Below the pieces are notes generated by a model. The model searched no databases. It was not told the DNA's origin and saw nothing but the letters and a program-made list of their open reading frames with translations. The translations under genes were made by a program, and so were the position numbers. 3,918 nucleotides of DNA from a virus (Duplodnaviria > Heunggongvirae > Uroviricota > Caudoviricetes): IMG/VR virus record IMGVR_UViG_2636415416_000003, positions 1 through 3,918 of that record; one strand, 5' to 3'. Position 1 is the stretch's first letter. Each line of letters opens with the position of its first letter. Of this stretch, positions 1 through 3,918 are shown piece after piece.

Positions 1-361
1 CGGAGGTGATGTCCCTTGCTTCATTCAGCAGGCTCTGGCGCTGTTTTTCTGCCAGCCGCAAATAATCAACAGGAACAGGAAGAACTTCGCCGTTTTTATA
101 ATACCAGCAGGCTTCAATGCCAAAGCCTTCCGGCAGTTCATCCACTTCCACAATGGTAAAACCAACGGGATAAAGACGGGATACGTCTTCCGCCATCGAA
201 TAAATCACGCCGGTTTCAGGATGCGTGCACAGCTTGTATTTCTTCGTGAATTTATCCAGGGATTCATAAAAGTCCTGCCCGTCTTCACTGCGGAAATACT
301 GAATGCCTTCACCATAAGGCATACCTTCAGGGTAATAACGCGTAACATTTCTGAGTTCCAT
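1..361 (-). CDS. Tail fiber assembly protein (Tfa/gpU-like), N-terminal ~120 aa; 3' end lies beyond the window start
   Basis: Seen: ATG at 361..359 on the minus strand, open frame to position 1 with no stop (my own translation: MELRNVTRYYPEGMPYGEGIQYFRSEDGQDFYESLDKFTKKYKLCTHPETGVIYSMAEDVSRLYPVGFTIVEVDELPEGFGIEACWYYKNGEVLPVPVDYLRLAEKQRQSLLNEARDITS...). Strong SD AAGGAG at 368..373 (minus), 6 nt before the ATG and 14 nt after the tail fiber stop. Established knowledge: position directly after a tail fiber gene and the motif layout (PxGF-hydrophobic-VEV, then W..NG.., then a Q/E/K-rich helix) match tail fiber assembly chaperones of Mu, lambda and e14-type phages. Not listed in the ORF track because it is truncated by the edge. 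Confidence 0.72.
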   Translation of the reverse strand, partial: MELRNVTRYYPEGMPYGEGIQYFRSEDGQDFYESLDKFTKKYKLCTHPETGVIYSMAEDVSRLYPVGFTIVEVDELPEGFGIEACWYYKNGEVLPVPVDYLRLAEKQRQSLLNEARDITS

Positions 362-2061: not shown

Positions 2062-3122
2062 GTCACCTCCCCGATGGTGATAAGCTCATCCACATCACTG
2101 GTGGTGTCCTCCCCGATGTTAAGGAAGTAATCCGTGATGCCGGACGTCATACCGATGGCCGTGCGCAGCGAGGACACCGGCAGCGTCTGACCGGGTGCCA
2201 GTGTCTTCTGTAACGCGGTCAGGTTTGCCCGGACGGCGCTCCTGTTCGCCAGGCTGTCCGGTGTCAGACGGATGGATATGCTGACTTTCTTCAGCCTGAC
2301 CTGTACCGGCCAGACCTCAATGCCGCCCGGTTTACCCACCATCACGCCCGTGGCCGGGTGTTTGTGGCAGAACAGATACTGCTCCATTGTCTTCAGGTCT
2401 TCGCGGGTTGGCACGATGTTTTCCCGGTCATCATAAAGCCATGCCAGCCCGACCGTGCCGGGGCCGTGCCATGCATCCCACGCCCACGCGCGGCTGACGC
2501 CCGGCACTTCACGCGCCCATATCACGTAGTCATGCAACGCGCCGCCTGTCGGTGGATTGCGGCGCACATACAGCAGACGGTCCAGCAGCGCTGCGATGGA
2601 TTCAGTGTCTGCGCCACCGGTGATGCCACCTTCAGCCACCGCGCCTGTGCTGGCCGTTCCGGGCAGCGGGGACAGCAGGGTGAGTACGGCACCGGCAGCA
2701 AGATTGCCCTCCACACCGGCTTCTTCAGCCTGCACGATGACGGTGACCTCGCCGTCCTGCACCTCGCCGGACGTGAGTACCTGATACACCTGGTTCGTGT
2801 CGGACTGCATCCGGGTTTCTGCCGGAAGGGGGGACTGACTGGTGAAGGTCACCCGCCCGCTGGCAAAGGTGGCCTGCTTGCGGATAACGCCTTCATACTT
2901 TGCTGTTTTGATAATGGTTTCATCATCAGACGTGGTGGACGGGATTATCTGGTCCTTAATCCAGCTCTGATGGTCGTATAAATCCCGGACCTGACTGCTG
3001 AATGACACGTTCAGCGCCTGCTCAACACTGACAGGCGGCAGCTTTTGCAGGCCGAGTTCATACGCAATATCTTTTTCGCCGTCGGCAATCAGTTTGCCCA
3101 GCGTGGGGATTTCATACGGCAT
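2046..3122 (-). CDS. Baseplate assembly protein J-like (Mu gp47 / P2 gpJ family), 358 aa, apparently intact
   Basis: Seen: 358-aa ORF; ATG at 3122..3120 with SD GGGAGG at 3132..3137 (minus), 9 nt upstream. Translation contains glycine/alanine-rich segments (AEGGITGGADTESIAALLDRLLYVRRNPPTGGALHDYVIWAREVPGVSRAWAW) typical of baseplate J proteins. Established: it sits immediately upstream of the gpI-like gene, as in Mu (gp47-gp48-S-U) and e14 (jayE-ymfQ-stfP-tfaP). Confidence 0.85.
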   Translation of the reverse strand: MPYEIPTLGKLIADGEKDIAYELGLQKLPPVSVEQALNVSFSSQVRDLYDHQSWIKDQIIPSTTSDDETIIKTAKYEGVIRKQATFASGRVTFTSQSPLPAETRMQSDTNQVYQVLTSGEVQDGEVTVIVQAEEAGVEGNLAAGAVLTLLSPLPGTASTGAVAEGGITGGADTESIAALLDRLLYVRRNPPTGGALHDYVIWAREVPGVSRAWAWDAWHGPGTVGLAWLYDDRENIVPTREDLKTMEQYLFCHKHPATGVMVGKPGGIEVWPVQVRLKKVSISIRLTPDSLANRSAVRANLTALQKTLAPGQTLPVSSLRTAIGMTSGITDYFLNIGEDTTSDVDELITIGEVTWLTA

Positions 3123-3184
3123 TAATGGTGGCCTCCCATCGACGGGTGATTTCGATTCTGAGTGTGGTTTTGTCCGGGCGGGTT

Positions 3185-3532
3185 ATGCAAACAGCAACCA
3201 AACCATCAAACAAGGCCTCAAAAGCTAATGAGTTAATGAAAATAATGGATTCTCTAAGCGAACAAGAAAAAGAGATCGTGATCCATACGCTCAAACGAAA
3301 AGGTGTTGAAAAGTTGCTCGAATTTTGCAGCCAAGAAAACCAAGAGTTGATTAGTTTAACGGGTATTCGAAGATTAGCTGCTTTAAGCCTAAATAACCTG
3401 TCAGAACAAAAGGTTAGAGAGATTTTGGCGGGAAATGAAGCTGAGGCCGATCTCATCCAACTAACCAACAAGGCAGTTAGCATAGCTGTGCTTAACTTAC
3501 TTGGTCCATTTCTACAACTTCTGATAAGCTAG
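3185..3532 (+). CDS. Hypothetical small protein in AT-rich segment (115 aa from ATG 3185; 98 aa if the in-frame ATG at 3236 is used); no family recognised
   Basis: Seen: the plus-strand ORF 3125..3532 in the track; its first 20 codons lie in GC-rich sequence overlapping the J start on the other strand, so I place the start at the first ATG inside the AT-rich block (3185) or at 3236. Both have only weak SD-like sequences. Translation is K/E/Q/L-rich with a hydrophobic C-terminal stretch (AVSIAVLNLLGPFLQLLIS) and uses AT-rich codons (aga, cga, tta, cta, ata). The overlapping minus-strand ORF 3112..3483 is S/F/L-rich and looks like an antisense shadow. Coding status is inferred from composition only. 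Confidence 0.45.
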   Translation: MQTATKPSNKASKANELMKIMDSLSEQEKEIVIHTLKRKGVEKLLEFCSQENQELISLTGIRRLAALSLNNLSEQKVREILAGNEAEADLIQLTNKAVSIAVLNLLGPFLQLLIS

Positions 3533-3571
3533 TTTTAAAAGCCTTTAAAAGGTCAAAATAAACAAGACGCT

Positions 3572-3736
3572 TTATCTTGAATGTTTTATTGTTCTGAACA
3601 AACTAAACGGCCCTTGCCCATTTTATCTTGAATACAACTAGTAGCTAAGTTATTGAATCCAATCAAATCCCGTCTTTTTTAATCTCTTCCCGGTTATCTT
3701 GAATAAATTACCTAGTCATAGTCACTTAATCTTGAT
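3572..3736. repeat. Array of short direct repeats: exact 11-bp TTATCTTGAAT three times plus one degenerate copy
   Basis: Seen directly: TTATCTTGAAT at 3572..3582, 3623..3633 and 3694..3704 (the first two share 12 bp, TTTATCTTGAAT), and a variant TTAATCTTGAT at 3726..3736 sharing the ATCTTGA core. Start-to-start spacings are 51, 71 and about 32-33 bp, close to whole numbers of helical turns. All copies are in the same orientation, in AT-rich non-coding DNA downstream of the small ORF. Confidence 0.6.
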
Positions 3737-3820
3737 GTCGCGTTACTGGATATTAATGATGTTGGGGGGCTGGCTGATTTTGTGGTGGAGTGGATGCAAA
3801 ATCAGGACGGATAAGCAAGA

Positions 3821-3858
3821 GTAGGCTGGATCAGACGCAGCCAGCGTCGCATCCGACC
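3821..3858. repeat. REP-like (repetitive extragenic palindromic) element
   Basis: Seen: GTAGGCTGGATCAGACGCAGCCAGCGTCGCATCCGACC. Its reverse complement (GGTCGGATGCGACGCTGGCTGCGTCTGATCCAGCCTAC) closely resembles the enterobacterial REP consensus GCCTGATGCGACGCTGGCGCGTCTTATCAGGCCTAC, recalled from memory. The preceding CAGGACGGATAAG (3803..3815) may be a partial second unit. Confidence 0.6.
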
Positions 3859-3872
3859 TTTTTCTGCACCAG

Positions 3873-3903
3873 CGCAAAAAGGCCCAGTCTTCCGACCGGG
3901 CCT
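3873..3903 (-). terminator. Rho-independent terminator for a minus-strand transcript entering from the right
   Basis: Seen: on the minus strand GGCCCGGTC-GGAA-GACTGGGCC followed by TTTTTGCG, a 9-bp GC-rich stem (one G.U pair) with a GNRA-type tetraloop and a U5 tract. On the plus strand the stem is followed by the weaker T-rich TTCTGCTTAATTT, so some bidirectional activity is possible. Confidence 0.6.
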
Positions 3904-3918
3904 TCTGCTTAATTTGAT

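Follow-up and report, generated by a model that had tools for sequence, protein, structure and literature searches.

Shigella and Escherichia coli carry "grounded" prophage remnants, such as e14 with its jayE and ymfQ genes, in which a baseplate and tail-fibre block is kept together with truncated regulators and IS elements at the edges, and which are immobile. Mu-like transposable phages are a second point of reference. The two ends of phage Mu carry the sites L1-L3 and R1-R3, respectively, with spacings that differ between the ends (PMC3145075), and the repressor of Mu, which has a DNA-binding domain in common with the transposase, is a weak binder of the phage ends (PMC3820752). The 3,918-nucleotide stretch of DNA analysed here (the window; Table 1) bears a likeness to both kinds of element.

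The AT-rich block of the window (GC 0.33-0.41 over 3200-3700, versus 0.55-0.67 in the tail genes) holds a plus-strand open reading frame (ORF) at 3185-3532, which was called from an ATG at 3185 to a TAG at 3530-3532 and would specify 115 amino acids (aa). Alternative in-frame ATGs lie at 3125 (135 aa), 3236 (98 aa), and 3245 (95 aa). A first-pass annotation had proposed a coding ORF of 98-115 aa in this block, and such an ORF is present, with the same translation. It had also considered the product to be an orphan with a hydrophobic C-terminal tail, perhaps a membrane-anchored exclusion, abortive-infection, or toxin-like factor, or else a small regulator of the adjacent repeats. The findings described below lead to another explanation. 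In all probability, the ORF represents the defunct remains of the gene for the lysogenic repressor in a Mu-like prophage, a decaying pseudogene fragment that we infer to be unexpressed or without function. As such, it belongs, in truncated form, to a known family and lies in an already known kind of element, the defective Mu-like prophage.

Table 1. Features of the window (coordinates in nucleotides; a full stop marks features with no strand)
Feature	Position	Strand	Basis or remark
Tail-fibre assembly gene, 5' part	1..361	-	Weak Caudo_TAP match; 176 aa in full, cut by window edge
Tail-fibre protein gene, 365 aa	376..1473	-	ORF; weak Gp34_trimer match
Mu gp48/YmfQ-family baseplate gene, 194 aa	1477..2061	-	PF10076 Phage_Mu_Gp48, 3.4e-30
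Baseplate J/Mu gp47 gene, 358 aa	2046..3122	-	PF04865, 8.7e-60
gp46 baseplate gene remnant, last 23 codons and stop	3112..3185	-	Collinear with RM9088 gp46-gp47 up to 3185
Junction-made ATG (break between 3185 and 3186)	3185..3187	+	A from gp46 side, TG from Leu69 TTG
Repressor gene fragment, codons 69 (part)-168 of 168, C-terminal helical domain only	3186..3484	+	DNA and protein alignments, phrog_7148
Read-through extension AVLNLLGPFLQLLIS and TAG	3485..3532	+	10-bp deletion after 3484 took native TAA
Left end (attL) of Mu-like prophage, tip at 3720 (...CCTAGTCATA)	3533..3720	+	Conserved to this base, then host DNA
Repeat TTATCTTGAAT (L3 by analogy with Mu), putative end-binding site	3572..3582	+	
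Repeat TTATCTTGAAT (L2), putative end-binding site	3623..3633	+	
Repeat TTATCTTGAAT (L1), putative terminal end-binding site	3694..3704	+	16 nt from tip
GTCA, neither phage tip nor mobB	3721..3724	.	E. coli mobB has GCCG; target-duplication slot
Host mobB, last 29 codons and stop	3725..3814	+	3' end matches all 5426 E. coli genomes; translation LNLDVALLDINDVGGLADFVVEWMQNQDG, then stop, versus MobB C-terminus
Host mobB-rrf intergenic DNA	3815..3918	.	5S rRNA gene directly next in E. coli

Relationship of the ORF to Mu-type repressors

Pfam yields only sub-threshold noise for the ORF alone (e.g., KH_PARP14_6 and RAD51D_N), and NCBIfam contains no match for the ORF or for its full-length relative. 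A family can be recognised all the same. The ORF matches phrog_7148, annotated as "transcriptional repressor", at 2.4e-30, although only over profile positions 71-176 of 176, and phrog_3037 at 5.7e-13. Its product is 98% and 94% identical to 168-aa proteins that carry PF02316, and the full-length protein matches both PF02316, the "Mu DNA-binding domain" (1.7e-9), and phrog_7148 (4e-63). The full-length protein of S. sonnei (P0010) is 98% identical to the ORF product over the common part, and its residues 7-60 align to the DNA-binding domain of the Mu repressor (1G4D/1QPM, 9e-6) and to the N-terminal domain of MuA (1TNS, 3e-5). At the DNA level, the ORF is about 99% identical, from position 3186 onward, to the 3' two-thirds of the 168-aa repressor gene of S. 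sonnei (L010). Furthermore, tblastn picks up c genes at the left ends of four phages, Mu, D108, SfMu, and PhiR68_1, and the window ORF itself aligns to residues 87-158 of D108 c (pairwise E 0.002). Given this homology to PHROG 7148, to the PF02316 relatives, and to D108 c, the ORF is, as judged from sequence, part of a Mu-type lysogenic repressor gene (c/Rep; PHROG 7148) and not an orphan.

S. sonnei and E. coli RM9088 have intact Mu-like prophages in which the 168-aa gene is located at the left end. In RM9088, where the insertion point of the complete element is the end of nrfA, this left end carries an outward-pointing gene for a 168-aa "DNA-binding protein", which diverges from the genes for an HTH_35 (Ner-like) protein, a Mu transposase, and an AAA ATPase. 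After these come, in this order, Gam, Mor, lysis, head, and tail genes, gp46, gp47, YmfQ, tail fibres, Com, and Mom, and the "hypothetical protein" that follows YmfQ there corresponds in position to the 365-aa tail-fibre gene of the window. The tail-fibre assembly gene, which the window edge cuts, is complete in the source chromosome (L005, 6647-7177) and carries PF02413. For the repressor locus, the position is partly kept in the window: the orientation and the placement at the left end are those of the family, with the ORF stop 188 bp from the tip, whereas ner, A, B, and the intergenic control region have been deleted. The setting is an immunity/left-end region and not the accessory position that had been supposed. 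In its intact form, the gene specifies 168 aa, with an N-terminal winged-helix domain for operators (in Mu also for the ends) followed by a helical C-terminal domain that closes with a conserved ...K-x-(A/V)-S-(I/A); it is the gene nearest to the left end, reads outward, and diverges from ner-A-B.

What the window copy has lost is the DNA-binding part. The ORF has no match to PF02316, the N-terminal winged-helix domain, and the deleted residues 1-68 comprise everything that aligns to the solved DNA-binding domain of the Mu repressor. Because this domain is absent, the ORF is a fragment of a family member rather than a functional member. This loss bears directly on the idea that the ORF encodes an active small regulator of the adjacent TTATCTTGAAT repeats. 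That idea was right about ancestry, as the parent protein is a DNA-binding repressor, and the weak binding of the Mu repressor to the phage ends through a domain common to the transposase (PMC3820752) would give it a precedent. However, the domain in question is the one that is gone, and the repeats, laid out as the inverted terminal sites of a transposable element, are primarily of the transposase type. Such a regulator is therefore most improbable, and the ORF is better regarded as what remains of a repressor gene after its DNA-binding part was removed.

The part that does remain, the C-terminal domain, has 36 invariant columns among the homologues. By analogy with Mu Rep, it may be a multimerisation/regulatory domain. 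Within a set of relatives (P0057, P0106, P0056, P0131, P0036, and P0139), it is seen to be a module: it is also found behind a different N-terminal helix-turn-helix in 197-aa proteins, and a few short proteins consist of the C-terminal domain alone (P0036 and P0139, in the 50%-identity library). Distant members of the family, those with the other helix-turn-helix included, mostly end in K-x-A-S-A, which is reminiscent of C-terminal ClpX degrons.

The sequence itself has a narrow distribution. The window is identical, base for base, in the Shigella records CP027027.1 (L005) and UYIS01000011.1 (L007), 6817-10734, and other S. dysenteriae and S. boydii records contain it with a few differences. 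Among 5426 complete E. coli genomes, only RM9088 has a match to window positions 3188-3720, at 93% DNA identity, while positions 3725-3918 are matched in all 5426, by the mobB 3' end and the spacer that leads up to a 5S rRNA gene. A search of 5.8 billion cluster representatives returned 7 homologues, namely, one Shigella fragment and six PF02316 proteins of 168-174 aa.

Two deletions and a read-through tail

Comparison with the intact relatives reveals two lesions. The first is a large internal deletion. Reading rightward, collinearity with gp47-gp46 of RM9088 stops at 3185, and collinearity with the repressor gene begins at 3186, within codon Leu69. As measured in RM9088, the segment missing at this junction is 30.2 kb; since it includes one IS66-family insertion, about 27 kb of phage DNA is concerned. 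Repressor codons 1-68 have gone with it, together with the GGAGG ribosome-binding site, the PF02316 domain, and the promoter/operator control region, as have ner, the transposase and MuB genes, the early, lysis, and head genes, and most of the tail genes. In CP027027.1 (L005), the 68 N-terminal repressor codons are not present in frame elsewhere. In the ATG at 3185, the first base comes from gp46 and the other two from the Leu69 TTG; the start codon as annotated thus arose by chance where the two sequences met. A 123-aa ORF on the minus strand (3112-3483) was also considered as a gene and was rejected as a chimera, its last 23 codons being the gp46 C-terminus and the rest being antisense to the repressor fragment; gp46 of RM9088 ends in ...TRPDKTTLTIEITRRWEATINAV, and this minus-strand ORF ends in ...TRPDKTTLRIEITRRWEATINAV.

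The second lesion is small. RM9088 and the near-identical S. sonnei copy carry an extra 10 bp (TAATCAGCTA or an equivalent register) after position 3484, and these 10 bp contain the TAA stop that follows ...AVSI or ...TASI. All six full-length homologues (168-174 aa, with identities down to 49%) end at this same position, and the tail is confined to the Shigella cluster. In the window copy, positions 3485-3529 code for 15 additional residues, AVLNLLGPFLQLLIS, and the native carboxyl terminus, ...K-x-(A/V)-S-(I/A/P), is buried under this extension. Given that the tail DNA is non-coding in every full-length relative and that the stop has been deleted, the hydrophobic tail is evidently a derived read-through, a product of the 10-bp deletion and not a conserved membrane anchor.

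The tail is nonetheless hydrophobic, as the first-pass annotation had stated. The last 19 residues have a Kyte-Doolittle mean of 1.89, the highest of any 19-residue window in the protein and above the usual threshold of 1.6. The description of the product as charged also holds, since the remainder contains 14 K+R and 14 D+E in 100 residues. An AlphaFold2 model of the 115-aa product (from an 8-sequence alignment) is all-helical, with residues 96-114 drawn as a helix, but its confidence is too low for use (mean pLDDT 45, pTM 0.29). Could the product then be a small tail-anchored membrane protein that acts in phage exclusion or abortive infection, or as a toxin? Its hydropathy and predicted helix are compatible with this, but 15 of the 19 tail residues come from DNA that is non-coding in all of the full-length relatives and owe their translation to the 10-bp deletion. 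The segment also includes N, G, P, and Q, and what precedes it is a soluble repressor domain. In addition, the locus is an immunity region rather than a moron slot, and PADLOC finds 0 defence families for the ORF and for its full-length relative. A membrane-bound or toxic function of this kind seems to us extremely unlikely, and the affiliation of the ORF with the Mu-type repressors is retained instead.

The ORF is open, and its protein sequence is identical, across the S. dysenteriae and S. boydii records. Databases list exactly this 115-aa product under the name "hypothetical protein [Shigella]", and the 95-aa version under "putative regulatory protein [Shigella dysenteriae]". An ORF that is kept open across Shigella records is expected for a recent clonal remnant and is no proof of lost function. 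Signals around it were also sought. A crude consensus scan of 2900-3918 gave 0 sigma-70-like promoters versus 1.8 expected (a fortuitous promoter might still drive the ORF), a consensus scan of the same segment for terminators found none, and Rfam (whole window, E<=1) returned zero RNA families.

A further hypothesis is that the fragment is translated, from the ATG at 3185, 3236, or 3245, and serves as a poison subunit, a C-terminal domain with a changed carboxyl end and no DNA-binding domain. It would co-assemble with a homoimmune Mu-like repressor and make this weaker or less stable, much as the Mu "vir" repressors would with their trans-dominant 3' frameshifts. The retained part is indeed the conserved C-terminal domain, with its invariant columns, and this domain recurs behind different N-terminal DNA-binding domains. 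Homoimmune intact prophages, which could supply the partner, exist in S. sonnei and E. coli. For Mu itself, the title of Geuskens et al. 1991 (as cited in PMC8541194) speaks of repressor frameshifts that are trans-dominant virulent, and a passage in PMC10584840 refers to a C-terminal ClpX recognition determinant in the Mu repressor. However, the fragment has neither a promoter-like site nor the native ribosome-binding site, its start is accidental, and the remainder of the element is decaying; moreover, the argument is one by analogy, with the multimerisation by the C-terminal domain carried over from Mu. A poison subunit is thus improbable, if less so than the two functions discussed above. 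It is slightly more doubtful again that a translated fragment alters the stability or ClpXP sensitivity of incoming or resident homoimmune repressors, that is, that it acts as a natural "vir-like" trans-dominant fragment. If it did, a dead prophage would modulate the lysogeny of its live relatives.

Taken together, these results favour a pseudogene: the DNA-binding domain, the native translation signals, and a promoter-like site are missing, the start is accidental, and the C-terminus is altered. In outline, mobB of a forebear of these Shigella strains received a Mu-like transposable prophage. One lesion, the internal deletion, fused the 3' end of gp46 to repressor codon 69, and the A|TG junction happens to spell a start codon. 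The other, the 10-bp deletion, dropped the native stop, and consequently the frame continues for 15 codons into left-end DNA that is normally non-coding and yields the hydrophobic tail. A tail that arises from a 10-bp loss of the stop codon, together with a loss of about 30 kb, points to ordinary prophage decay. In close relatives the frame is disrupted at both the tail and the start codon, an outcome that the first-pass annotation had itself named as evidence against a conserved protein.

The left end of the prophage and its insertion in mobB

The position of the prophage tip can be fixed to the base. At 12 distinct left-end insertion sites, including that of the window (from Shigella, E. coli, and IMG/VR contigs), the similarity breaks at the same base and unrelated DNA follows, and 5 distinct right-end insertion sites likewise break at one base. 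As all 12 left-end sites end in ...CCTAGTCATA, the tip corresponds to window base 3720. The TTATCTTGAAT repeats lie inside it. In RM9088, this sequence is found three times at the left end and, inverted, three times within about 85 bp of the right tip (two of these three with one mismatch); altogether there are 7 matches in 47.5 kb versus 0.4 expected. The terminal copy is 16 nt from the tip at both RM9088 ends, inverted at the right. These arrangements suggest that the repeats are transposase-type end-binding sites of the left end, to which the transposase would presumably bind.

Left ends of this type are also present elsewhere. In several loci (L014, L017-L019, L026, and L029), the last 100-150 bp of the left end are 80-90% identical to the window (3380-3720), and the repressor genes of these relatives are unrelated or only 74%-similar. 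A conserved end that is joined to differing repressor genes indicates that the immunity regions on that end are mosaic. Three left ends but a single right end are present in S. flexneri SFBU1023, and likewise in E. coli ECMA0423, which suggests that these strains harbour further one-ended remnants.

The sequence that follows the tip belongs to the host. The 29 C-terminal residues of MobB, one of them G in place of the E of E. coli, are specified by positions 3725-3814, and therefore the prophage interrupted mobB, the gene for molybdopterin-guanine dinucleotide biosynthesis protein B. The four bases in between, GTCA (3721-3724), may represent two transitions, the leftover flank of a previous host, or an adjacent deletion. 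In three prophages with both ends in view, 4-bp duplications can be discerned (CTTA, TATC, and AATA), although for the last of these (S. flexneri/ECMA0423) it is an assumption that the two ends belong together. The evidence on tips and duplications lies at window positions 3694-3724, at L003 3427-3510 and 46681-46707, in L015/L020, and in L023-L030. The Mu target consensus and a 5-bp duplication were both tried at the junctions, and neither fits.

Decay of the remnant and comparison with known systems

The other end of the prophage has been lost. In CP027027.1 (L005), an IS4 copy (2275-3700) sits in the terminator hairpin just after mom and replaces the phage right end, and the 20-kb Shigella locus contains no right-end repeat. 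Beyond IS4 lie typA-glnA (L005 1-2223), in what we take to be an orientation inverted relative to the gene order of E. coli K-12. These features fit an IS4-mediated inversion that took attR and the 5' part of mobB away. With one end, without a transposase, and without a complete repressor, the remnant cannot move. In other Shigella strains, there is a 1-bp deletion in the tail-fibre assembly gene at window position 108 (L004), and the tail-fibre genes are fragmented (L004/L006, 5000-7200); these lesions indicate that the remnant is still decaying. An intact mom (231 aa) is called in all four of the large Shigella loci, and calls of com (61 aa) are confined to L005 and L007, with none in L004 and L006.

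For databases, this means that the entry for a "hypothetical" or "putative regulatory" protein stands for a gene fragment whose start is accidental and whose tail is read-through, and its proper annotation would be that of a pseudogene in a defective Mu-like prophage that disrupts mobB. The locus provides a worked example of how two lesions can yield an ORF that mimics a tail-anchored accessory protein. In addition, the ends of this Escherichia/Shigella group of Mu-like phages are now defined, with TA tips and an apparent 4-bp duplication, which may be of interest to specialists in transposition.

Of the described systems, the e14-type remnants resemble the window in their kept baseplate and tail-fibre block, truncated regulators, edge IS elements, and immobility. 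The window remnant differs from them in its origin, a transposable phage of the Mu type, and in the one transposon end that it has preserved.

The closest counterparts of the gene are the c genes of Mu and D108. The full-length relatives align to D108 c from end to end (168 versus 174 aa) with 25-26% identity (2e-11), and they occupy the same position as Mu/D108 c, first inside the left end, pointing outward, and divergent from ner-A-B. The window copy departs from c in that it is without residues 1-68 and without the native C-terminus. Since the repressor is only about 25% identical to D108 c, its allele would, by sequence divergence, constitute a distinct immunity type; the closest isolated phage in the phage collection reaches 35% identity at most. 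The Mu "vir" alleles, which are 3' frameshifts of c, offer another parallel, in that a 3' lesion exchanges the native carboxyl terminus for unrelated residues. However, in the "vir" alleles, which are expressed, the promoter and the DNA-binding domain are still in place, whereas the window copy has neither the domain nor the promoter.

The ends, too, are both like and unlike those of Mu. As in attL and attR of Mu, three repeats occupy the terminal ~150 bp, inverted between the ends, with the terminal site near the tip and an AT-rich composition. The spacing of the sites in the RM9088-type element is 51 and 71 bp at the left and 22 and 35 bp at the right, and so the two ends differ as they do in Mu; furthermore, the right tip of the RM9088-type phage, TAAAGCGCGCA, resembles that of D108, TGAAGCGGCGCA. 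In contrast, the site sequence is ATTCAAGATAA here, which is different from the Mu consensus annotated in D108 (YMyNwRAARYRCGAAAR), the tips are 5'-TA...TA-3' rather than the TG...CA of Mu and D108, and the target duplication is apparently 4 bp rather than the 5 bp of Mu.
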